32,000 nucleotides of DNA from Candidatus Baldrarchaeum yapensis (GTDB taxonomy: Archaea > Asgardarchaeota > Baldrarchaeia > Baldrarchaeales > Baldrarchaeaceae): the NCBI GenBank assembly GCA_016840465.1, contig JAEOSH010000005.1, positions 1-32,000 of the forward strand, read 5' to 3'. The position numbers and the translations under genes are program-made. Shown piece after piece: positions 1 through 12,766 of the stretch. Below the pieces are notes generated by a model. The model ran no database searches. It was not told the origin of the DNA and was given only the letters and a program-made list of their open reading frames with translations. The stretch's first letter is position 1. Every line of letters begins with the position of its first letter.

Positions 1-653
1 GCCTTCACTCCCAGCCCAAGGAAGAATGCTACAAAGCACATATTCACGAAACCCATGTCTAATGTTTCCTTATTCTCGAGGAAGAACTCTGCAAGATCCG
101 TGAATCTTAATGTCGTTTGTTGCGATAAGAGAAGCACTGCGGATATTAGCAGAACCGATGCACCTATGCTACAAAGTACGAGATACTTTAATCCCGCCTC
201 AATGGACTCCGGTCTCCGGTCGTGGATTACGAGTACCGTTGAGACGACCGTTACTATCTCTAGGAATATGTACAGTGTTAGTAAATCTGCAGCGACCGCC
301 ATTCCGTACATGCTAGCTATGAACAACGCTGAAAATACATAGTATTCCCGCTGGAGACTTTGCTCCTCTTCGCTCATATACGAAAGAGACGCTATCATTG
401 CAAGAGCGCCGAGAAGTAATACTAGCCAGCCGGTGAGCGCGCCGAGGCCATCAACGTTAAACAACACCGTCAGCGTATCCACGGCTTCCCCGTCAAGTAT
501 TGCAAGTTTTGCGCCATAACTTGCAGCTATAAACGCGAGTATTGAAAATACTGTTGTAGGAATTCCATTCCTGTTCTTTGGCATTACAAATTCGAGCAAT
601 GCTCCTATGAGGAGAACACTGAGTATGCACTCGGGCGCGATCAGACAGGTCAT
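1..653 (-). CDS. Antiporter-like ion-translocating subunit (NuoN/MrpD/HyfF family) of the membrane-bound hydrogenase; truncated by window start
   Basis: Not in ORF track. Hand translation from ATG 653 (ATGA overlap with upstream stop) is open to base 1: MTCLIAPECILSVLLIG...DLLTLYIFLEIVTVVS...ESIEAGLKYLVL...FFLGLGVK. These are the conserved LF.FLE, EAG.KY and G.K motifs. Confidence 0.9.
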   Translation of the reverse strand, partial: MTCLIAPECILSVLLIGALLEFVMPKNRNGIPTTVFSILAFIAASYGAKLAILDGEAVDTLTVLFNVDGLGALTGWLVLLLGALAMIASLSYMSEEEQSLQREYYVFSALFIASMYGMAVAADLLTLYIFLEIVTVVSTVLVIHDRRPESIEAGLKYLVLCSIGASVLLISAVLLLSQQTTLRFTDLAEFFLENKETLDMGFVNMCFVAFFLGLGVK

Positions 654-1267
654 CCTACCAACCTCCTCAAACTCCAACTATTAATCGTTCCAGTCTTTTG
701 ATATGCAAGCAACGCCAAATAGAGAACCATTCCGACTACGGTTAATGTTATCAGACTACAAAGCGCGCTTTGGATCATCACTACACCTCCTACATATTCG
801 GTTGCGGAAAACACTGAGCACAGATGTAGGCCCTCGTCGATTATTGCAAGACCCACTGCGAACTTCACAATATTTCCCTTTACCAAGAGCGCATAGAGCC
901 CAACTATAAACATCGCGACCGCCAATTGCTGGTACCATGTCAGTCCTCTAACCAAGGTCCCACCTGCTGCAAATACCGTTAATGCAATAAGGGCCAGCAA
1001 CGCCATGGATGTTCCACCGCCCACAGGTTCTCTTTCCACTGGCGGCAGCTTTCTAAGGACATACAGCATCATTGAAGGTACTGCAACGCCATATACCAAC
1101 AGAACCATTGATGCTTCTATTGCATGCGGTGAGAGCCCAGCAAGCGCCGCGCCGAGTATTCCCGCTATGCCCAACAGGTATGCGGAATATCTTAGGTTTC
1201 TTGTCTCTACTGCTAATATCCCAAATATCACGAGTATCACTGAAATTGCGCTTTCCACATAACTCAT
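650..1267 (-). CDS. HyfE-like membrane subunit (NuoJ/NuoK-related)
   Basis: 205 aa, multi-TM. VAVPSMML...EREP linker as in HyfE; C-terminal half NuoK/MnhC-like (KGNIVKFAVGL, INSWSLRRLVG); operon context. Confidence 0.75.
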   Translation of the reverse strand: MSYVESAISVILVIFGILAVETRNLRYSAYLLGIAGILGAALAGLSPHAIEASMVLLVYGVAVPSMMLYVLRKLPPVEREPVGGGTSMALLALIALTVFAAGGTLVRGLTWYQQLAVAMFIVGLYALLVKGNIVKFAVGLAIIDEGLHLCSVFSATEYVGGVVMIQSALCSLITLTVVGMVLYLALLAYQKTGTINSWSLRRLVG

Positions 1268-1812
1268 TTCATCATCACCATCAAGATTTTTCTTCCAGCC
1301 TCAATATTTTCTATCTTGCGTCTGCAATTCGGACATACCTCAACAATCTGACGGAACTTCTCAATATCTATATTGTACTTCTTTAGGAGGTCTGCGACCT
1401 TTTCGAGTCCCATTTCAAGTTGCGGTTTTGGAACAAATGGAGTTCCACAAATTCTACAGGTGAGGAGAGGGACCGTGACCTTGACATAAAACGCAGACTT
1501 ATCGTAATCGCTCAATTCGAATTCGCGAGAGAGTTTTACTGCCTCTGCTGGGCATACTTCCTCACATCTCGCACAGAACGTACATTTTCCATAGAAATAT
1601 GATATGGTTCTCTCCGCACCCTTATCTTCTATTGTTATCCCCTCTGCTGAACAGACCCTAGCACATGCCCCACACCCAATGCACTTCTCGGGATCCACTT
1701 CAGGCTTTCCGCGGAATCCCTCCGGTGCTGGCGATGGTTCGTAAGGATATTTTATTGTGAAGGGACGTTTAAACAGGGCTTTTATCGTTTCAATAATTGT
1801 TCGCTCCTTCAC
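1264..1812 (-). CDS. NuoI/HycF-like 2x[4Fe-4S] subunit with extra CxxC...CPxC metal site
   Basis: TIKYPYEP...GFRGKP start; CIGCGACARVC and CTFCARCEEVCP; C-terminal CRIC...CPNC as in HycF. Confidence 0.93.
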   Translation of the reverse strand: MKERTIIETIKALFKRPFTIKYPYEPSPAPEGFRGKPEVDPEKCIGCGACARVCSAEGITIEDKGAERTISYFYGKCTFCARCEEVCPAEAVKLSREFELSDYDKSAFYVKVTVPLLTCRICGTPFVPKPQLEMGLEKVADLLKKYNIDIEKFRQIVEVCPNCRRKIENIEAGRKILMVMMK

Positions 1813-1815
1813 GTA

Positions 1816-2832
1816 TCACACCCCCACTACCGCATATAATACCAACATCTCTCCTATAAGTCCCACGAGCGAGAGCAGAAGAGCTACCTTCATGAAGAAC
1901 TTGTACGCCTGATCTATCCTGTATCTCGGATTTATGATGTCTATGTATGCCAGTATCAGTACTATCACAAAGCACTTTATCAGGAATGTTATGATGCTCG
2001 TATCTCCGCCTATGAACAATATCACGGTGAACGCTGGAAGCACGAACCACTTCAACGCGTTTGTTACCTCGAAGAGTCCCAATAACTTTCCTGAGTATTC
2101 GGTGAGTGGCCCTGCAAGTATTTCGCACTCGGCCTCGGGTATATCAAATGGCCTTTTGCCCATCTTCGCTAATACGCATAATAGGAACGATATGAATAGA
2201 CAAATCCTAAATACCACGCTCAGTACATATAGCATCGGGTCTAATCCTTCCACAGACGTTATCAGGAACGGGCCTTCCTTCGCCTGTTTGACCATCATCT
2301 CGTTGACACTAAGGGTTTTCATGAATATCACGACACCAACTATTGACACTGCAAACGGGAGTTCGCTGGATAACAGTAGGTTTACCCTTCGGCTAGCACC
2401 AACTGCACCGTAGGGCGATGCTGAACTTGCTCCCGCAACTATCTCACCGACTTCTATCAATGCGAGTAGGTATAGTATGACTATTATATCCGCCCAGAAT
2501 GCCAATGGACTCACGAGGGGTTCTGCCGTCGGAAGAACATGCGCTGGTATCGGCAATAGCCACAGAGCTGTTACACAGCCTGTTAGCGCTATTATTGGCG
2601 CCAGCACGAATAGCGTTCTATGTGCCACCTTAGGAATTATTGTCTCCTTATTGAACAATTTCACAATGTCTGCGAATACTTGATACCATGGTGGTCCTAC
2701 TCTTGACTGCATTCTTGCTCGAAGCTTTCTATAACTCCAGAGAAACATTGCACCCATAAAGAATGCAAATAAACCTCCGGGATAAAGAGCCGCATATATT
2801 ATTGCTAATATGACTTCCATAACGTCCGTCAT
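1816..2832 (-). CDS. NuoH/HycD/EchB-like membrane subunit
   Basis: RKLRARMQSRVGPPWYQVFADIVKLFNKE, ASSASPYGAVGASR, KRPFDIPEAECEILAGPLTEYSG motifs. Confidence 0.96.
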   Translation of the reverse strand: MTDVMEVILAIIYAALYPGGLFAFFMGAMFLWSYRKLRARMQSRVGPPWYQVFADIVKLFNKETIIPKVAHRTLFVLAPIIALTGCVTALWLLPIPAHVLPTAEPLVSPLAFWADIIVILYLLALIEVGEIVAGASSASPYGAVGASRRVNLLLSSELPFAVSIVGVVIFMKTLSVNEMMVKQAKEGPFLITSVEGLDPMLYVLSVVFRICLFISFLLCVLAKMGKRPFDIPEAECEILAGPLTEYSGKLLGLFEVTNALKWFVLPAFTVILFIGGDTSIITFLIKCFVIVLILAYIDIINPRYRIDQAYKFFMKVALLLSLVGLIGEMLVLYAVVGV

Positions 2833-3989
2833 TTCCTCTTCCTCCCGTACCTTATCATAAATTCGTTGAACGTCATTATCTTCTTTTCATTAGTTCGCGA
2901 ATCAACAATAATCACTCTCTCAGTACATGCAACACACGGATCGACGCTCGCAAATATTAACGGGGCATCCGCAATGGTTTCTTCAAGTAACATTGGCTTT
3001 ACCGATGCAATGTTCATGAAACTCGGAGTTCTGACTTTCACCCTTTCGGGCACATTTGTACCGTTTGATTTGATATAATACACGAGCTCTCCTCGTGGAG
3101 CCTCTACTCTTCCGAAAGCCTCACCTGGCGGAAATCTACTTACCTCAGTAACTATGGGGCCTGGTGGAAGCTTCTCTAAACTTTCATTCACCATTTTAAT
3201 GGATTCATACACTTCGTACACTCTGACGAGTGTCTTTGCGAGTACGTCACCCTCATCGAACACTATCATTTCCCAATCAAGTCTATCATATGCAGCATAA
3301 GGATCGTCCTTACGAATATCGGATGCTATTCTAGATGCCCTTGCGGTTGGTCCAACAACACCGTAGCGTTTTGCCTCCTCATGCGTTAATACGCCGACGC
3401 CCTTCACACGAGCTTCTATTACTGGATCCTGGAGAATTGCCTCAACCGTTTTGTCGAAAGCATTTTTGATAGTATCCATGTACTTCTTTACTAGCCTTAT
3501 TGTCTTTTCATCAACGTCCCTTCTGACACCACCAATGGTGTTATACGCATAGTTTACCCGGTTTCCAGTAATTATTTCCAGAAGATCCTGGACGTACTCC
3601 CTATCCCGCCATATCTGCATGAAGAGCGTATCAAACCCTATGATGTGCATCGCGACTCCTAACCATAAGAGATGGCTATGAATACGTTCGAGCTCTGCAA
3701 CTAATACTCTCAGAAACAGTGCTCTTTCGGGAGGAGTTACACCTGCAACGTCTTCAACCGTTTGGCAATAGCAGGTCGTGTGCGCATCACTACAAATTCC
3801 ACAAACGCGCTCGAATAGGAAAATATTTTGCCAGTAAGTTCTTCTCATCGCCAGATATTCGATGCCGCGATGGTGATATCCGAGTTTTATGTCGGCATCT
3901 TTGATTCTCTCTCCCTCCACCTCTAACTTGAGAAAAATGGGTTCCTTGAGCGCAACATGATACGGACCGATTGGTATTGTCGCCGCCAT
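2829..3989 (-). CDS. Group 4 [NiFe]-hydrogenase large subunit (EchE/MbhL-like), with C-terminal extension after L2
   Basis: L1 ERVCGICSDAH and L2 DPCVACTER, so all four Ni-ligating Cys are present; ELERIHSH and EAPRGE motifs; separate NuoC-like gene. Confidence 0.96.
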   Translation of the reverse strand: MAATIPIGPYHVALKEPIFLKLEVEGERIKDADIKLGYHHRGIEYLAMRRTYWQNIFLFERVCGICSDAHTTCYCQTVEDVAGVTPPERALFLRVLVAELERIHSHLLWLGVAMHIIGFDTLFMQIWRDREYVQDLLEIITGNRVNYAYNTIGGVRRDVDEKTIRLVKKYMDTIKNAFDKTVEAILQDPVIEARVKGVGVLTHEEAKRYGVVGPTARASRIASDIRKDDPYAAYDRLDWEMIVFDEGDVLAKTLVRVYEVYESIKMVNESLEKLPPGPIVTEVSRFPPGEAFGRVEAPRGELVYYIKSNGTNVPERVKVRTPSFMNIASVKPMLLEETIADAPLIFASVDPCVACTERVIIVDSRTNEKKIMTFNEFMIRYGRKRK

Positions 3990-4001
3990 CTCAACACCAC
4001 C

Positions 4002-4886
4002 TCATATTTTCACCTTCTCCAGAACATTCTTCACGGGAATCCTGTGAAGTTTGATCCCGATTTCATCGGGGGAAATACCAAACGAAAGTGCAAGTAGTTC
4101 CATTATGTGCAAAACCGGAATCCTAAAGGTCTCTTTTACGTATCTTCTCAGTTCCGTCTGTCCTAGTTCAAATTGTATATAACATGCAGGACATGCAAGG
4201 ACTATGCAGTCCGCATTGGATTCCCTCATGTTCTTAAGCTTTACATGCAGCCTGTTTTTCAGCGAAAACTCCACATTTGCCTGTCTAGCTGGATATCCAC
4301 AACATAATCTTTCAACACCATACTCCACGAGATTAGCTTCCGTGACCCTAATTAGTTCCTCAAGAAGCCGTGGCTTTTTCCATACGTCCTCATCATCCGG
4401 TTTTGCAGATCTAAATAGGTGGCAACCATAATGAACAGCAACATTAAGGCTCCTCAGAGGCCTCTTGACGTATTCTTTTAACTTCTCGATGCCTATATCC
4501 TCTCCAAGTACCTCAACTACATGCTTCACTTCTATTTTACCTTCAACCTTCTTTCCAATACCGCTCAACACCTGATTTACTTCATTACGCAACTCTGCAT
4601 CCTCTTTGAGCATATGATTGACCTCAAATAGCGTTTCATAGCAACCATTGCATAGGGTCATAATGTCCTTGCCTTTAGCTTCGGCAAGTGCTATATTCCT
4701 AGCTGCGAGTGCGGTCCACAACTTTCTTGCAACAAGCTTTGAAATTACAGGTTCAGGGCAACAAGACGCTCCCTCTAACTCCTCAATCGAAACTCCCAGT
4801 ACTTCAAAGACTTTCCTAGATGCCGCTTCAATGTTTGGCATCCTCGCGGGAATGTAGCATCCCCAAAATGCAACATATTCGGGCAT
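4002..4886 (-). CDS. hdrB: Heterodisulfide reductase subunit B (two CCG domains)
   Basis: FWGCY, SCCPEP, CNGC in domain 1; HYGCHL, LCCG, CPAC in domain 2: ten Cys as in HdrB. Confidence 0.9.
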   Translation of the reverse strand: MPEYVAFWGCYIPARMPNIEAASRKVFEVLGVSIEELEGASCCPEPVISKLVARKLWTALAARNIALAEAKGKDIMTLCNGCYETLFEVNHMLKEDAELRNEVNQVLSGIGKKVEGKIEVKHVVEVLGEDIGIEKLKEYVKRPLRSLNVAVHYGCHLFRSAKPDDEDVWKKPRLLEELIRVTEANLVEYGVERLCCGYPARQANVEFSLKNRLHVKLKNMRESNADCIVLACPACYIQFELGQTELRRYVKETFRIPVLHIMELLALSFGISPDEIGIKLHRIPVKNVLEKVKI

Positions 4887-4898
4887 CTTGCTTTCACC

Positions 4899-5570
4899 TC
4901 ACTTATATCTTAGCCTCTTCTTCTCCCAATCATACCCGGCTTCCTTATCAAATCCAGTTTCCTTCACTATTTCATGAACTTCCTTGAGAGCGTCCTCAAC
5001 AACGGCGGTTGTGGGCAATTGCGACGACAATTTTAGTTCCTCTCTCCTCCTTGCAAGTGGCGGTGCTATTTCTAATGGCTGCCCTTTGGTTATGAGCATT
5101 TCAACACTGGGTCTCTGGTCCTTTGGAATGACGCCCTCCATCGGTTTGCGCAGTGGATGAACCCCCTCTGGTAATTCGAATGGTAGTAGAAGTCTCCTTG
5201 GATCCGGATGACCTTCAAATTTTACCCCGAACAAATCGGAGATTTCACGCTCTATCCATTGAGCAGCAGGCAGGAACTCGGCAATGCTATCTATGGAAGA
5301 TTCCTCCTTCTTGACAATCGTTCTCAGGCTGAGGACGTTACCGCCACCGACGTCTATATGGTATACCATTTCGAAATCCGTGCCATTATCCACACATGAA
5401 ATAGTGATAAAACGGGCGTCGAAATTGTCGATCAAAAACTTTACCATGGACTTTACGGCATCCTTCTCAACGTTAGCAAAGTACCTCTTATCCCGCTTCT
5501 TATAGTATCTTATGAACTTATCCCCAAATTGCTCCTTCAGTTTTGAAATTATTTCCTCGACACTAATCAA
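4899..5570 (-). CDS. NuoC/EchD/MbhK-like subunit fused to an HdrC-like C-terminal tail
   Basis: aa 1-142: WIEREISDLFGVKFEGHPDPRRLLLP...HPLRK (complex I 30 kDa family). aa ~146-223: LPTT...DALKEVHEIVKETGFDKEAGYDWE resembles recalled HdrC C-termini. TTG start after GTGAGGATGA. Confidence 0.85.
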   Translation of the reverse strand: MISVEEIISKLKEQFGDKFIRYYKKRDKRYFANVEKDAVKSMVKFLIDNFDARFITISCVDNGTDFEMVYHIDVGGGNVLSLRTIVKKEESSIDSIAEFLPAAQWIEREISDLFGVKFEGHPDPRRLLLPFELPEGVHPLRKPMEGVIPKDQRPSVEMLITKGQPLEIAPPLARRREELKLSSQLPTTAVVEDALKEVHEIVKETGFDKEAGYDWEKKRLRYK

Positions 5571-5582
5571 TCATCCTCACCC

Positions 5583-7553
5583 CTATAGGAATAATATCGC
5601 TAGAATTATTGCAAGGAAGGCTGCAAGAACTATGGTATACACGTTAAGGTATCCTATTTGCACTTTTCTCAACTTCTCTGACGCTTTTACGACCAACTTG
5701 CCTATTCCGAACCAGAGTATGTCGAGGCCTCCTCTTTTCATGAACTTGTATAGTTTCTCAAACATGACCTCAGATCCGAAGAGAAACGCCTCCGGATCTG
5801 GGCGAACCCTATTTATGTCAAGGTAAGGTTGTTCGATTTCACCACCAGTGAATACGTCAATTTCCACCTCGGCAGGAGTTCTTGGCGCTAGTCCTATTCT
5901 GTAAATAGCGAGTCCCAGTATTATCGATGCAACTATCAGTCCCGTAACAAGAGTGGCAAAGTATCCTCCGAGCATTGTGGTTTCAACAAACCCTAGCCAT
6001 GTAACGTGAACTTCCCCGCCAACTAGTGCAACGGATGCGGGAATTATAAGTCGTAGCGGAACTTGAGGAACAACTCCGAAGAACAAGCATAGAAACGCCA
6101 GTATTGTTATCGAAACCTGCATTGGTAGAGGTACCTCTTTAACCTCCTTCAACTTCTCCGGTCGCGATCCGAAGAATGCTGAATATAGCAGCTTCATAAA
6201 GCTTGCAAGTGTAGCTGCACTGACGAACATAGCAATTACTGCATAAACAATGAACAGAGAACCAGCAAGACCACCTAACTCTATTCCTCTCCCCAGTGCG
6301 GCCTCATATATCATTAACTTGCTGACAAATCCGTTGAACGGCGGAATTCCGGAAACCGAAAACGCAGCAAATATGCAGGCGACTGCTGTCACTGGCATGT
6401 TCTTTGCGAGTCCACCCATTTCATCAAGGTATCTTGTACCGGTTGCGTATATTAGACAACCTGCACATAAGGAGAGCAATCCTTTGAATATTGCGTGATT
6501 CAGCAAGTGGAAGAGTCCTGCTGCAACACCAAGTGCAGTTCCGATTCCAACTCCCAAGAACATGTATCCTATTTGACTAATTGTGTGATACGCGAGCAAT
6601 CTCTCGATATCCTTTTGAGCAAGAGCGCACATCACGGCTACCGTCATTGTGATTACGCCTATCGTTGAAACGGTAAGCTGCCAGAGGAGACTCTTACCCA
6701 GGACTTCTCCAAACAGGAAATACATTCGCGCAACGAGATATATACCTGCTTTAACCATCGCGGCTGCATGCAGAAGCGCAGTGGCTGGAGACGGGGCAAC
6801 TGTGGCATCGGGTAGCCATGTATGCAACGGGAATTGAACGGATTTTGCAATTGCTGCGACAAGGAATAGCACCGCAATTATCACGGCAACATCCTTACAG
6901 TATATCAGTTTTCTTGGAAGTTCCTCGAATAGAAGAGTTCCCGCTGCTAGATACGTCCAAATAATCCCTACTAGTAATGCAAGCCCTGTTCCGTGTGTGA
7001 GCATGATTGCCTTGTATGATGCTCTTAAATGATCCGGCTTCTCATAGTGGAACCCTGTAAGGAGATATGAGCATATGCCTACCAGTTCCCAGAAGACGAA
7101 TAGTAGTATCAGGTCGCCTGCAAATGCTAACCCGGTCATGGAGCCTATAAATATCAGCATTACCGCATAGAATCTTCCTAGGTGTTCTTCTCGCTCCATA
7201 TCGGCCACTGCATATAGGAGATCCAGTGTGCCAAAGCCTGATGCTATCCCAGCTATTAACAAACTTAGACTGTCTATGTAAAGGGCAAATTCCATTCCTA
7301 TGAACGGTTGCGCTATCATTGGAACTAGTGCTGCAAATTTTTCTGAAAACTCGAGCGTGAATATCACTTTTCCTTTCTCGAGTACTTCTGGTATCAGCAT
7401 GAAGACCAGTGCTGCAGATATGAATGCTATTATTGTCGAGAACCAGCCGACTCCCTTCTTTGAAACATTACCCAGAGGGTACGCAAAAATTGCGGCCAGT
7501 ATTGGGATCGAAAACGCAAGAACTCCGATCATTCCCGGATCCAACCCTACCAC
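5583..7553 (-). CDS. NuoL/MrpA/HycC-like antiporter subunit
   Basis: WELVGICSYLL, KSVQFPLHTWLPDA, TISQIGY, NHAIFKGLL, PPFNGFVSK; C-terminal amphipathic helix plus TM. Confidence 0.95.
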   Translation of the reverse strand: MVGLDPGMIGVLAFSIPILAAIFAYPLGNVSKKGVGWFSTIIAFISAALVFMLIPEVLEKGKVIFTLEFSEKFAALVPMIAQPFIGMEFALYIDSLSLLIAGIASGFGTLDLLYAVADMEREEHLGRFYAVMLIFIGSMTGLAFAGDLILLFVFWELVGICSYLLTGFHYEKPDHLRASYKAIMLTHGTGLALLVGIIWTYLAAGTLLFEELPRKLIYCKDVAVIIAVLFLVAAIAKSVQFPLHTWLPDATVAPSPATALLHAAAMVKAGIYLVARMYFLFGEVLGKSLLWQLTVSTIGVITMTVAVMCALAQKDIERLLAYHTISQIGYMFLGVGIGTALGVAAGLFHLLNHAIFKGLLSLCAGCLIYATGTRYLDEMGGLAKNMPVTAVACIFAAFSVSGIPPFNGFVSKLMIYEAALGRGIELGGLAGSLFIVYAVIAMFVSAATLASFMKLLYSAFFGSRPEKLKEVKEVPLPMQVSITILAFLCLFFGVVPQVPLRLIIPASVALVGGEVHVTWLGFVETTMLGGYFATLVTGLIVASIILGLAIYRIGLAPRTPAEVEIDVFTGGEIEQPYLDINRVRPDPEAFLFGSEVMFEKLYKFMKRGGLDILWFGIGKLVVKASEKLRKVQIGYLNVYTIVLAAFLAIILAILFL

Positions 7554-7559
7554 CTCGCT

Positions 7560-8012
7560 TCATTCTTTATAAATTTCTTTGAGTAATGCTGTAGCCTCTT
7601 CACGTGGAACAAATCTTAATGCTCTCGATGAGCAGAACTTCACGCACTCCGGATCACCATCGCATAGATCACACTTTATCGAAACCCTCAACGCTTCATT
7701 GAACCACGGGACAGAAAGTGGACACATGACATTACACAACTGGCAACCTATGCACTTCATTACGTCTATTGTCACTATTCCGGTATCCTCGTCTTTAACG
7801 ATTGCCGACACTGGGCACACCGTTGCACAAATGGGCTCTTCGCAATGGTGACAATAAACAGCTTCAAACCTTTTTAATTCTTCAGCGAAGCTTATCTTTA
7901 TATTTGAGAGGTTGTAATCGAGAACCCCGTAGTGTTTATAGGAGCATGCGATCATGCACGATGTACATCCCGTACATCTCCACGGATTATAAACAAGTAC
8001 CATTTGCGTCAT
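7560..8012 (-). CDS. HycB/CooF/DmsB-like 4x[4Fe-4S] protein, first gene of the hydrogenase operon
   Basis: 16 Cys in four groups (CTGCTSCMIAC, CHHCEEPICATVCP, CIGCQLCNVMCP, CDLCDGDPECVKFC). Confidence 0.93.
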   Translation of the reverse strand: MTQMVLVYNPWRCTGCTSCMIACSYKHYGVLDYNLSNIKISFAEELKRFEAVYCHHCEEPICATVCPVSAIVKDEDTGIVTIDVMKCIGCQLCNVMCPLSVPWFNEALRVSIKCDLCDGDPECVKFCSSRALRFVPREEATALLKEIYKE

Positions 8013-8405: not shown

Positions 8406-8867
8406 TCTTTCTTTTTGTACCCTCTCATGTGTATTTGATAGCCCGGCAAAAACGTATTGCAATTCGCTTTGCGTAGGTTGTAAGATCATGTGCCTTATGC
8501 ACTTTTTCGCTCCCTAACAATATAATCGGAGACTGAGTATCAATTCTTCTCCTTTGTTGTTATTTCTTTGAGAAGAAAGTTAAAATAATTTACCTTTTGG
8601 GGGGAAATATATGAACGTTGACGTTTGAAGAAAAAATTACAGTAACATCTCTACAATCATTGTATTTAATATCCAAGTGTTTTTCGTTTATCGTAAATTG
8701 ATTATATTGTGCGTCGACTAATTTTAGACGGAAGGAGATATTAGTTTTTCTTCCTCTCTACGCAAAAGATATAAAACTTTCTTATCATAACATTGCCGGA
8801 ACGTATTAGCAGTCCGTTAGGCCCATTTACGCTTCCGAATAGGACAGTGAGAACGAGAGGATCGAGT

Positions 8868-10964
8868 ATGGGGCTGCGGCCAGCAGAAATGGAAATTGTG
8901 AAAATAATTTGTCATAAGGATTATGAGCGGTCGATACTCTGCGCACTTCATGAACTTGGATGTGTAGAATTCATAGATGTCGAGCGAAAAGGGACGACAC
9001 GGGCCACAACGAGAGAGGAGAGCGAAATTCTTTCATCATTAGGGATTGTTTCTAGAATTATCGATTATCTCGGCCTCGAGAGGTATGAACCCGCGATAGA
9101 GAGAATAGAAATAGATGATAGGAAGTTGGAGAATATACTAAGATTCACAAAAGAGTTGCTGAACGAGGTTTCACCCATTGTTGACAAGCTTAGAGAGGAG
9201 GAAGAAAAGCTCATCAGAGAGAAGAACGAATGGGAAACTATGAAAAAGATTGCCGAGCAACTTGCTCCATTAAGGGTAAGACTCGAACACCTAGGTGCGG
9301 GGAAGTATTTCTTCACTGTGGCAGGAGTTGTTAAAACTGCTAGGGTTCGAAGACTTGAGTGGAATATAAGAGAGGCTACTGATGGCGCTTATGTTTTCTT
9401 TGAACACCCAATAGGAAAGGAGGAAAGTGTCGTAATAATAGGATCATTATTGGAGTACTCGGATGTCATAAGGAGAGTACTCTTCGCATTCGACTTTGAT
9501 GAGTTCAAAATTCCGGTGAACATCCAAGGGTCGGCGGAGCAAATAGTTGAGGAAGCTAACAAGAGAATTTTGGAAATAGAGGGGGATCTTGAGAAAATCA
9601 ACGAAGAGAGGGCCAAAATTGCCGAAAAGTATAGAGTTAAGCTTCTTGCGTTGGAAGAGATATTAAAACTCGAGAGAGATAGAATAGAGATTAGGCAGAA
9701 ATTCAGGGAAACTGCCGATACTGTTGAAATGTGGGGATGGGTACCGAGGAAGTATAGGAAGACCGTAGAGGAGGCGGTAGAGAGGGCAAGTGATGGAACT
9801 GCATATATAAAGTTTGAAGAACCAGATTTTCCGCCTGAGGAGTTTCCCACATATCTTGAGAATCCAAATGTCGTGAAACCATGCGAGAGATTGGTAAAAG
9901 CATATGGAGTTCCAAGATACGAGGAAATAGATCCCTCGCGGATAATAGCAATAACATTCCCGATAATATTTGGAATAATGTTTGCCGATGTTGGACATGG
10001 TGCTATACTTACGTTATTGGGACTTGCAGGCATATTAATGAAACCAATACCAAAACCTAAGGGTATCGTGGACGAAATCATGGAATATATAAGGAAAGGA
10101 GGAGTACTACTCCTTACATGCGGAATTTCATCCGTTATTTGGGGGTTCATCTTTGGAACTTTCTTTGGCATTCCAGGGTTCTTTAAACCGATATGGTTCT
10201 CCCCAGAGGCCGAAATGACAGAATTCGGCGTAGGTGGAAGGTTCTTACTACTAGAACTTGCAATAGTTATCGGAGTACTACACATATCTTCTGGAATACT
10301 GATTGCAGTCATCCAGAAATTGAGGCATGGAGAGTACGGGGAGGCGCTTCTCGGAAGATTTCCATTGCTGATAATCTACTGGTCGGCATCAATACTCGTG
10401 TTTAGCCGAGGCATAGGATTGAACTTTATGCTTTGGTTCCAACCGATAAGTGGAGAGTTTGACATTGCATTAATACCATTCCTGAAGTTCGCTGTCCCAA
10501 ACGCTATGTACTTGAGCATCTTCGGGATCATCGTGCCGCTGTTGCTGGTGCTTACATACTACGGAAGGCACGGTATGGAAGGAGTATCGGAGGCAATAGA
10601 CTTTCTATTGAGTCTGTTGAGCCATACTGTAAGTTATGCTCGAATATTTGCGCTCAACCTCATACATGGAGTACTTTCACAAATTTGTGCAACGATGATT
10701 CCAGGATTCTGGATATACGTACATACCTATATTCCTGTGCATGGCCATTACGGAATTCAGGTGAGTATCGTAGGAATAATTGCAGGAACGCTAATAATAT
10801 TGATGTTAGAGGCACTAATAGCGTTCCTTCACACGCTCCGACTCCACTGGGTCGAGTGGTTCTCGAAATTCTACATCGGAGAAGGAAAGGAATTCTTGCC
10901 ATTCAAGTCTGAGCGTCTGTTCACAATTCCAACATACATTTCTGCACTACCAATTCGTAGATAA
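8868..10964 (+). CDS. atpI: A/V-type ATP synthase subunit I (a)
   Basis: FPIIFGIMFADVGHG, HTVSYARIFAL (essential Arg), LRLHWVEWFSKFY. Start moved to ATG 8868 (after GAGAGG) from ORF-track 8793. Confidence 0.97.
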   Translation: MGLRPAEMEIVKIICHKDYERSILCALHELGCVEFIDVERKGTTRATTREESEILSSLGIVSRIIDYLGLERYEPAIERIEIDDRKLENILRFTKELLNEVSPIVDKLREEEEKLIREKNEWETMKKIAEQLAPLRVRLEHLGAGKYFFTVAGVVKTARVRRLEWNIREATDGAYVFFEHPIGKEESVVIIGSLLEYSDVIRRVLFAFDFDEFKIPVNIQGSAEQIVEEANKRILEIEGDLEKINEERAKIAEKYRVKLLALEEILKLERDRIEIRQKFRETADTVEMWGWVPRKYRKTVEEAVERASDGTAYIKFEEPDFPPEEFPTYLENPNVVKPCERLVKAYGVPRYEEIDPSRIIAITFPIIFGIMFADVGHGAILTLLGLAGILMKPIPKPKGIVDEIMEYIRKGGVLLLTCGISSVIWGFIFGTFFGIPGFFKPIWFSPEAEMTEFGVGGRFLLLELAIVIGVLHISSGILIAVIQKLRHGEYGEALLGRFPLLIIYWSASILVFSRGIGLNFMLWFQPISGEFDIALIPFLKFAVPNAMYLSIFGIIVPLLLVLTYYGRHGMEGVSEAIDFLLSLLSHTVSYARIFALNLIHGVLSQICATMIPGFWIYVHTYIPVHGHYGIQVSIVGIIAGTLIILMLEALIAFLHTLRLHWVEWFSKFYIGEGKEFLPFKSERLFTIPTYISALPIRR

Positions 10965-11010
10965 CAATTAGGTATTTATTCCAAGGTAGGCAATAATGTA
11001 GGGAGCGCTG

Positions 11011-11268
11011 ATGAGTAGAGAAGATGCATGGGCAAATGCAGCTAAGTGGATGGGCTGGGGGCTGGGATTGCCGATTATGGTATTCGTGGGAGCATATATT
11101 GGGCATGTCATTGGGTCACAATACGGGAAGATGTACGAAGCAATAGGCATCATAGTGGGAGCATTATTAGGGTTTTTTGTCGGAGTTTATGACATCCTCA
11201 TGACGGCGAAAATCATAGAGAGAAAGAAGAAAGGAAGGACTCACCGGAGTAAAAGCAATACTCAGTAG
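11011..11268 (+). CDS. Small 2-TM protein, AtpZ/AtpI ('ATPase gene 1')-like
   Basis: 85 aa; two Gly-rich TM helices (GLGLPIMVFVGAYIG / IGIIVGALLGFFVGVY) and a basic tail; lies between subunits I and C. Confidence 0.7.
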   Translation: MSREDAWANAAKWMGWGLGLPIMVFVGAYIGHVIGSQYGKMYEAIGIIVGALLGFFVGVYDILMTAKIIERKKKGRTHRSKSNTQ

Positions 11269-11280
11269 GAGGTAAGGGTC

Positions 11281-12345
11281 ATGTTAAGGGAACCTTTCTC
11301 TTATTCTTTTATAAATGCCTGGATAAGAGCAATAATGTCGAGATTTGTGACGATAGGCGACTTTGAGAGAGCTATTTCAGCTACAACTTTTGAAGAGGCA
11401 TTCAGGCTAATAGCTGCCACTACATACGCGAATGTGCTTTCTGACATCTCACCTGAGAAAATACTGACGTTTGAGGAGGTTGATACGAGGCTAAGCAAGC
11501 ATTTCATAGACACATTTGTGAGAATACTGAGACTCGTTCCAAAGCGGGCAGAAGACTTCTTGATGACTTATTTCAAGAAATTCGAATTTTCTAATCTTAA
11601 GGTGGTGCTACGAGCGAAGCATGCGAGACTTTCCAGAGAAGAAACCATGAAGTACCTTCTTCCGACATCGGAGGTAGAGTTTCACCTATTGGAAACCTAC
11701 ATGGACACCGCTGATATCGAATCTCTTATAGAACATATTCCTTATAGGGCTGTAAGAAAAGCACTCCAAGATGCATTACCGAGTTATAAGGAACTTGGAA
11801 ATACGGTGCCCCTTGAGGTCGCATTGGATAAATTGTTCTTCTCAATGATATGGGATAAGATCGATAAGCTTTCAGGAATTGACAGAAAGGAAGCCATGAG
11901 GCATATAGGGCTGGAGGCAGATCTTCAAAACATAATGACCATTTTGCGGTGTAAAGCCCTAAACATAGATCAGAACGTATTAAGACAATTTATCTTGCCA
12001 TCTCGATATCATTTTGGAGAGCAAATACAGAGGAGATGCATATTAGCAACGACTATAGAGGATGTGCTCTATGTGTTACTTAACACGTACTATAAAGATC
12101 TGATTTCTCGAGTTAAGGATACTTACGAAAAATACAAAAACATAACCAATGCGGAACGGCTTATAGAACAATACAAGGCACACGAGTATCATAGGACGTT
12201 CATAGGATACCCATTCCACATTGGAACAATCCTATCGTTCTTTAATTTGAAATTTTATGAAACAAGAAACGTACGTATAACCTTACTAGGAAAATTTGAG
12301 GGGGTTGCTCCTGAAAGGTTACGAAATCTTTTAATAATATTTTGA
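11281..12345 (+). CDS. atpC: A/V-type ATP synthase subunit C (homolog of eukaryotic V0 d)
   Basis: YSFINAWIRAIMSR, FEFSNLKVVLR, ADLQNIMTILR, YETRNVR motifs; RBS GGAGGT. Confidence 0.92.
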   Translation: MLREPFSYSFINAWIRAIMSRFVTIGDFERAISATTFEEAFRLIAATTYANVLSDISPEKILTFEEVDTRLSKHFIDTFVRILRLVPKRAEDFLMTYFKKFEFSNLKVVLRAKHARLSREETMKYLLPTSEVEFHLLETYMDTADIESLIEHIPYRAVRKALQDALPSYKELGNTVPLEVALDKLFFSMIWDKIDKLSGIDRKEAMRHIGLEADLQNIMTILRCKALNIDQNVLRQFILPSRYHFGEQIQRRCILATTIEDVLYVLLNTYYKDLISRVKDTYEKYKNITNAERLIEQYKAHEYHRTFIGYPFHIGTILSFFNLKFYETRNVRITLLGKFEGVAPERLRNLLIIF

Positions 12346-12373
12346 GGAGAAATGACAAAGGAGGGATGGCGAA

Positions 12374-12766
12374 ATGGACGCCCGGAAAAAATTCATTCTT
12401 ACACAAATGTTCTTCGTTGCAAGTGTGGTACTCATAATACTTTTCATGGTGCTGGTGCCTGTCGCAACCGCGAATTCAGGTTCTACGCAGGCCGTCAAAA
12501 CAGCCGAGGAACAAACCACTACTGTGGAGATGAAAATTGATGTGGGACTTTTAGCACTTGGTGCGGGTATCGCCGTTGGGCTAGCGGGTTTGGGCGCAGG
12601 CCTTGGAATGGGAGCCGCGGGATCTGCAGCAATGGGGGCTATCGCAGAGAGACCTGAGATTTTCGGTAGGACAATGATCTACATAGTGTTCATAGAAGCT
12701 ATTGCAATATACGGCCTTGTGATTGGATTCTTACTGTGCTTCGCAATTACGGGATTAATCCCTTAA
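12374..12766 (+). CDS. atpK: A/V-type ATP synthase subunit K (c), single hairpin with N-terminal signal-like extension
   Basis: [12 protein letters not shown]...AERPEIFGR...FIEAIAIYG with carrier Glu; hydrophobic leader ending VATA. Confidence 0.95.

Follow-up and report, generated by a model that had tools for sequence, protein, structure and literature searches.

How a disulfide-reductase subunit of the HdrB type is mounted on a membrane-bound [NiFe]-hydrogenase is the question raised by a gene of Candidatus Baldrarchaeum yapensis, in which a NuoC-like subunit runs on into a C-terminal segment that lies directly before an hdrB gene. The gene is found in the window analyzed here, i.e., the first 32 kb of contig JAEOSH010000005.1, which belongs to a genome of 2.27 Mb and 96% completeness. 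Its two halves are delimited as follows.

4899-5570, minus strand: NuoC::arm gene, 223 aa, TTG start, stop codon at 4899-4901, between the NuoL-like and hdrB genes
5142-5570, minus strand: NuoC (30-kDa) domain, aa 1-143, PF00329, including the terminal PLRK
5145-5156, minus strand: PLRK motif, aa 139-142, at the end of the NuoC domain
4902-5141, minus strand: HdrC-derived C-terminal arm, aa 144-223, 80 aa, Cys-free, assigned by homology and predicted HdrB contact

The first half is matched by the Pfam model Complex1_30kDa (PF00329) with 93.9 bits against a gathering threshold of 22.5, covering aa 33-144 and profile positions 2-118 of 124. Among PDB sequences, the domain matches the MBH subunit MbhK (6cfw_K, E 1.8e-12), and NuoD-, NuoB-, NuoH- and NuoI-like partners are co-encoded with it, the NuoB-like one in near-identical contigs. 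Close homologues without a tail (P0018, P0019 and that of locus L027) end at 142-149 aa; in the protein studied here, 81 residues (aa 143-223) follow the PLRK motif. An earlier, sequence-only reading of this DNA had let NuoC end at HPLRK (aa 142) with additional residues behind it, which our analysis confirms; the span 4899-5135 that it gave for the tail corresponds to aa 146-223 plus the stop codon. It was likewise correct in stating that the Cys-containing ferredoxin part of HdrC is absent, as the entire 223-aa protein holds a single Cys and lacks the two CxxCxxCxxxC motifs of the HdrC ferredoxin domain.

To what is the tail related? The arm alone matches the HdrC model TIGR03290 at E 2e-5 over positions 80-143 of 144, and solved HdrC chains at E 3.5-5.9e-5 in their C-terminal 60-70 residues. 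The canonical HdrC of the same genome is matched at E 9e-6, in an ungapped stretch of 69 aa with 29% identity. A profile built from 17 tails, compared with all PDB sequences, matched HdrC chains only (5odc_C, 8rvu_c, 8rvv_C, 9sfi_E and 7bkb_C), the best being 5odc_C at E 4.6e-15, where profile positions 2-78 correspond to HdrC residues 107-183 of 184 in an ungapped alignment. Individually, 15 of the 17 tails match TIGR03290. Within the tail alignment, R176 and L181 are invariant, and E197, G212 and R221 nearly so. The ungapped likeness to the HdrC C-terminus, which the sequence-only reading had noted, thus holds, and the HdrC match that it suggested seeking for the tail alone was obtained. Two broader searches with the arm region gave nothing beyond this: no Pfam model covered it, and a word-index search with the arm alone as query returned only the protein of 4899-5570 itself. 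By sequence comparison, the arm is confirmed as a homologue of the HdrC C-terminal extension, with a likeness far beyond chance. The protein as a whole scores 22.9 bits against TIGR03290, with a match confined to profile positions 78-142 and below the curated cut-off of 160 bits; on this sequence evidence it is a protein with an HdrC-derived segment rather than an HdrC.

Extensions of NuoC do occur for other reasons. Some NuoC homologues (P0020, P0048 and P0049) carry unrelated C-terminal extensions, and mitochondrial NDUFS3 aligns as far as ~aa 170, so that one might think of an ordinary lineage-specific extension, or of an assembly or frameshift artefact, whose likeness to HdrC is due to chance. 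We regard this as next to impossible. An exhaustive search of 1.84 billion representatives returned full-length homologues including the arm in ~16 clusters at 50% identity, which share 36-48% identity with the query, and the identical protein occurs on at least 13 contigs from several assemblies; the fusion therefore defines a conserved family and not an artefact. With the open frame kept throughout these clusters and in independent assemblies, and with the profile E-value of 4.6e-15 to HdrC chains only, both chance likeness and an assembly or frameshift artefact were ruled out.

The fusion is present in two phyla. It was found in 2 of 400 sampled Asgard genomes, and 401 sampled Thermoproteota genomes yielded, at E <= 1e-18, 14 fused and 2 stand-alone forms. 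The tailed proteins are named 'NADH-quinone oxidoreductase subunit C' or 'hypothetical' in the databases. Several metagenomes of hydrothermal vents and marine sediments, which stem from different studies, also have contigs that contain the DNA of 4002-5570; among the sequencing runs matched, there was no RNA data set with this DNA.

The NuoC::arm gene belongs to a tightly packed minus-strand hydrogenase operon, in which neighboring genes overlap or are separated by gaps of at most 12 nt. Its other members within the window are listed from the first gene onward.

7560-8012, minus strand: four-cluster polyferredoxin, 150 aa, first gene of the operon (Pfam Fer4_11, E 5.8e-16)
5583-7553, minus strand: NuoL/MrpA-like antiporter subunit, 656 aa (Pfam Proton_antipo_M, 2.2e-69)
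4002-4886, minus strand: HdrB-like catalytic subunit, 294 aa, with both CCG motifs (TIGR03288, 8rvu_b)
2829-3989, minus strand: group-4 [NiFe]-hydrogenase large subunit, NuoD-like, 386 aa (Complex1_49kDa 2.9e-72, NiFeSe_Hases 3.9e-11)
1816-2832, minus strand: NuoH-like membrane subunit (Pfam NADHdh, 5e-71)
1264-1812, minus strand: NuoI-like 2x[4Fe-4S] subunit (Fer4 families)
650-1267, minus strand: NuoK-like membrane subunit, 205 aa (Oxidored_q2, 8.9e-6, just below the cut-off)
3-677, minus strand: NuoM/N-like antiporter subunit, start only, cut by the contig end (Pfam)

In near-identical contigs (L009-L012), the NuoM-like gene is complete and encodes 483 aa; behind it, the operon ends with a gene for a NuoB-like small subunit of 141 aa. 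The translation of the large subunit reads an N-terminal RxCGxC and a C-terminal DPCxxC, so that the Ni-binding Cys motifs are intact. Upstream of the operon, in divergent orientation (8793-12766, plus strand), lie genes for three A-type ATP synthase subunits, namely I, C (AC39) and the c/K proteolipid, and after them a gene for an M20 peptidase. The proteolipid reading frame comprises 130 aa, with the ATP-synt_C match confined to aa 62-121.

Kohtz et al. 2022 (PMC9723716) describe 'HdrB-interacting' group-4 hydrogenases, namely Ehd in Methanomethylicia, Ehe in Culexarchaeia, Drh in Methanocella, Ehg in Nezhaarchaeia and 'Ehd-like' enzymes in Bathyarchaeia and others; for these, that paper draws on Borrel 2019 and Lyu and Lu 2015. 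Judged from gene content, the operon in the window probably encodes an Ehd-like, HdrB-associated and ion-translocating member of the group-4 [NiFe]-hydrogenases.

Is the arm tied to HdrB? In every tailed NuoC locus examined (the window, L013-L021, L103, L108 and L109), hdrB lies directly downstream, a neighborhood that the sequence-only reading had suggested checking for proteins of this architecture. Among 80 species-level NuoC loci from a NuoC-query scan, which returned mostly ordinary bacterial NuoC and served as the negative set, 3 had both arm and hdrB and 77 had neither within 7 kb. The nearest NuoC without a tail (L027, Candidatus Asgardarchaeum abyssi, 42% identity) is encoded in a hydrogenase operon that lacks hdrB. 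That operon (L027:1476-11065) is preceded by genes for a ferredoxin, a 638-aa protein and a P-loop protein, a set that resembles CooF-CooS-CooC; by ORF order and N-termini, it may be a CO-linked hydrogenase.

The fused module itself occurs in two forms. Membrane subunits accompany it in the window and in a Candidatus Asgardarchaeum sp. (G001, L103). In Bathyarchaeia and in metagenome contigs, we observed a module consisting of ferredoxin, NuoC::arm, HdrB, large subunit and a NuoB::NuoI fusion, and no NuoH/L/M genes were found nearby (L014, L015, L018, L019-L021, L108 and L109). One Bathyarchaeia genome (G400) holds two fused copies.

The HdrB partner (4002-4886) matches the solved HdrB 8rvu_b over its full length (E 4.7e-79) and reaches 315.6 bits with TIGR03288, just under the cut-off of 345. 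All ten of its CCG cysteines are invariant among 16 homologues. In HdrABC, the helical C-terminal part of HdrC packs against HdrB. Complex prediction of HdrB with the arm, using alignments of each, gave a score of 0.83 as compared to 0.00 for the best of three controls, which shows that the pair resembles the known interface but does not prove binding independently, as the predictor perhaps remembered the solved HdrBC structures (5ODC, 8RVU). The mark used for this score is attained by 58 of 80 solved complexes and by 2 of 110 mismatched pairs. At least 81% of the contacts were shared by three runs, with a partner pLDDT of at least 77. The arm is predicted to touch HdrB through its residues 5-67, and the contacts with the lowest predicted error are those between arm R176 and HdrB E20 and between arm E197 and HdrB R63. 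In the arm and HdrB alignments, E197 is nearly invariant and the other three residues are fully so.

These data bear out, at the level of a structural model, the proposal of the sequence-only reading that the tail docks HdrB; most likely, the arm clamps HdrB onto the hydrogenase. In M. maripaludis, the HdrC residues T79, Y81, Y84, E94 and K98 have been reported to lie at the interface with the HdrB active site (PMC13518236). These are probably not supplied by the arm, as their numbers lie below the ~107-183 region, a comparison of unaligned numbering across species.

We therefore consider it likely that NuoC::arm is a subunit of an Ehd-like hydrogenase, whose HdrC-derived arm fixes the adjacent HdrB to the peripheral arm of the complex, such that H2 reduces a disulfide while ions are moved. 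In the proposed mechanism, the arm of HdrC would have been detached from its ferredoxin domain and joined behind the PLRK of NuoC. It would wrap around the N-terminal CCG domain of the neighboring HdrB, as the same HdrC segment does in HdrABC, and would thus hold HdrB covalently next to NuoC and NuoI on the hydrogenase's peripheral arm. Electrons would pass from the [NiFe] site via the NuoB cluster and the NuoI clusters to the four clusters of the polyferredoxin and from there to the non-cubane clusters of HdrB. Reduction of the disulfide by H2 would be exergonic, and the NuoL/M/H-like subunits would move ions.

The polyferredoxin in this path is the product of the gene that opens the operon. 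A HycB/CooF-type protein wires a soluble catalytic partner to the NuoI-like subunit in formate hydrogenlyase and in CO-dependent hydrogenases. Comparison with PDB sequences places the polyferredoxin (7560-8012) in the HycB/CooF/DmsB type, with matches to 8c0z_C (1.5e-26), HycB3 (7qv7_A, 2.5e-18) and HycB of formate hydrogenlyase (7z0s_B, 3.5e-18). Of the 14 related loci in which the upstream side could be read, 13 have a homologue in the operon; in one tailed locus, L018, no polyferredoxin was seen directly upstream. By analogy, the HycB/CooF-type protein probably replaces the lost ferredoxin domain of HdrC. The sequence-only reading had routed the electrons through Fe-S proteins other than HdrC, a notion with which the co-conserved HycB/CooF-like ferredoxin fits; the path itself we infer.

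Does the linkage to NuoC matter for holding HdrB? In the Asgard genomes, our scan also revealed short ORFs (~88-128 aa) with a closer match to the arm profile than that of canonical HdrC. These split loci have the order ferredoxin, arm protein, HdrB, then NuoC or a fusion of NuoC with the large subunit, and the remaining hydrogenase genes. The same arrangement exists in two Thermoproteota genomes, one of them with McrA. As the arm is a separate protein of ~90 aa beside hdrB in many related operons, a covalent linkage is not required. This would suit a reading in which the arm is merely an obligatory clasp that completes or stabilizes HdrB, the fusion to NuoC being a neutral accident and HdrB being held otherwise, e.g., by the polyferredoxin. 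However, all eight stand-alone arm proteins (88-128 aa, at most one Cys) start with YP[LW]RK, the very motif that terminates NuoC and precedes the arm in the fused proteins, and the motif is absent from the partner NuoC or NuoCD in seven of seven cases. The two partner NuoC that are separate proteins match the Pfam profile only to position 110 of 124, while the fused and the HdrB-less NuoC reach 116-118 of 124. A motif carried by the arm protein and missing from its partner indicates that the arm is anchored in NuoC whether the genes are fused or split, and this evidence is independent of any structure predictor. The retention of the fusion across 36-48% identity and two phyla also speaks against a neutral accident. 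A clasp without a role for NuoC is consequently unlikely, and we retain the reading in which the arm mounts HdrB on the hydrogenase via NuoC.

The simplest reading of these sequences is that the stand-alone arms are fission products of NuoC::arm, cut a few residues upstream of PLRK, and they look like proteins that still complete, or plug into, NuoC. In a tree of HdrB, the fused-type, split-type and canonical proteins form three groups; the tree is unrooted, and the order of fusion and fission events is thus only inferred. In the McrA-bearing Thermoproteota genome (G404, L106), the arm is a Cys-free protein of 96 aa and NuoC is fused to the large subunit. Because of its McrA, this locus is taken to be the Ehd type of Methanomethylicia, with a gene order that differs from the published Ehd list. 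Adjoining this split-arm cluster on the opposite strand (L106:9506-11515), we noted two genes, one for a CCG-like protein of 242 aa and one for a protein of 425 aa that contains an HdrC-like ferredoxin stretch; together they may form a second Hdr-like unit.

A more far-reaching version would make the NuoC::arm fusion ancestral to all HdrB-linked group-4 hydrogenases, with the small 'hdrC' or 'HdrC?' of Ehd, Ehe and perhaps Drh as fission products that insert into NuoC. We put this forward tentatively, with slightly less than even confidence. If true, it would show where on a complex-I-like module a disulfide reductase physically docks, and it would describe an Asgard archaeon with ion-pumping, H2-dependent respiration of a disulfide.

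Which substrate could HdrB reduce? No match to McrA or ComA was found in the 96%-complete genome, which makes CoM-S-S-CoB an unlikely substrate. The organism has several Hdr systems despite the lack of McrA: the genome encodes one canonical hdrC-hdrB pair, which exceeds the TIGR03290 cut-off, and another four HdrC-like genes (contigs C52, C25 and C84; L002-L005), at least three of which adjoin HdrB-like genes. One could go further and assume that the linked CCG protein acts on a substrate other than a disulfide, the arm thus tethering a different chemistry. The missing McrA and ComA, the score of HdrB below the TIGR03288 equivalog cut-off and the separate group formed by HdrB of fused systems in the tree would all agree with this assumption. 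On the other hand, the match to solved HdrB extends over the full length with E 4.7e-79, the ten cluster cysteines are invariant, and non-methanogens widely possess HdrABC for unknown disulfides (PMC9723716). We therefore judge a non-disulfide substrate to be quite improbable and favor a disulfide as the electron acceptor.

Novelty has to be assigned with care. Neither the searchable literature nor the text and supplement of PMC9723716 yielded a description of the NuoC-HdrC arm fusion, the EhdD account of Borrel 2019 lying outside this scope, and the retention of the arm as the only part of HdrC and the PLRK split-motif relation were not found in these sources either. The view of the sequence-only reading that the fusion is undescribed accordingly stands for the architecture within the literature searched and fails for the enzyme class and its HdrC-like piece, both of which are already published (PMC9723716); only the fused architecture and its implications appear undescribed.

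The fusion and the split motif offer a testable answer to how HdrB mounts on a hydrogenase, i.e., via an HdrC arm anchored in the NuoC C-terminus, with a HycB/CooF-type ferredoxin that would supply its electrons. A role in energy conservation has been proposed for HdrB-linked membrane hydrogenases in several uncultured lineages of archaea, methanogens as well as non-methanogens, and annotation labels such as those given above hide an Hdr component. For structural biologists, the pairing of arm and HdrB indicates which constructs to choose for co-expression. An H2:disulfide respiratory module would also be placed in Asgard archaea, whose hydrogen metabolism bears on models for the origin of eukaryotes.

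Among known systems, Ehd and the Ehd-like enzymes come closest to the operon in the window. They, too, are membrane-bound group-4 enzymes whose operon includes hdrB along with genes for antiporter-like subunits and an HdrC-like piece, and for them H2:disulfide oxidoreduction with ion translocation has been proposed, as is proposed here. In contrast, the published Ehd list has a separate 'EhdD/hdrC' gene, while in 4899-5570 the HdrC piece is fused to NuoC, and the host of the window is a non-methanogenic Asgard archaeon. The gene lists in PMC9723716 also contain 'EheH/HdrC?' and a small drhH gene beside hdrB. According to the same paper, no HdrB-linked group-4 hydrogenase has been purified so far; expression of Ehg was reported in a cultivation paper of 2025 (PMC12700198). 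Drh, the 'disulfide-reducing hydrogenase' of Methanocella, likewise has hdrB in a Coo/Ech-like hydrogenase operon (Lyu and Lu 2015, cited in PMC6046458 and PMC9723716). It differs in its methanogen hosts and is reported to lack an antiporter subunit, and no fusion is reported for it. From its position beside hdrB in the gene list, drhH may represent the same arm as in NuoC::arm.

The soluble HdrABC-MvhAGD complexes share the two parts that are brought together here. Residues ~107-183 of their HdrC (5ODC, 8RVU, 7BKB) are homologous to the arm without gaps, with R, L, E and G[FY]DW kept, and their HdrB is homologous to that of the window over the full length. Their HdrC, however, contains a two-cluster ferredoxin domain that takes electrons from HdrA, and in its place the window protein has a NuoC domain without cluster cysteines. 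Formate hydrogenlyase and Coo have a four-cluster HycB/CooF-type ferredoxin too, which the first operon gene of the window matches; their catalytic partner is FdhH or CooS, whereas here it is HdrB, which would additionally be held by the NuoC arm. Finally, the NuoC C-terminus also serves as a fusion site in the NuoC-NuoD fusions of E. coli NuoCD and of HycE in formate hydrogenlyase, but there it leads into NuoD and here into the HdrC arm; in the relatives with split arms, NuoC is often joined to the large subunit instead.
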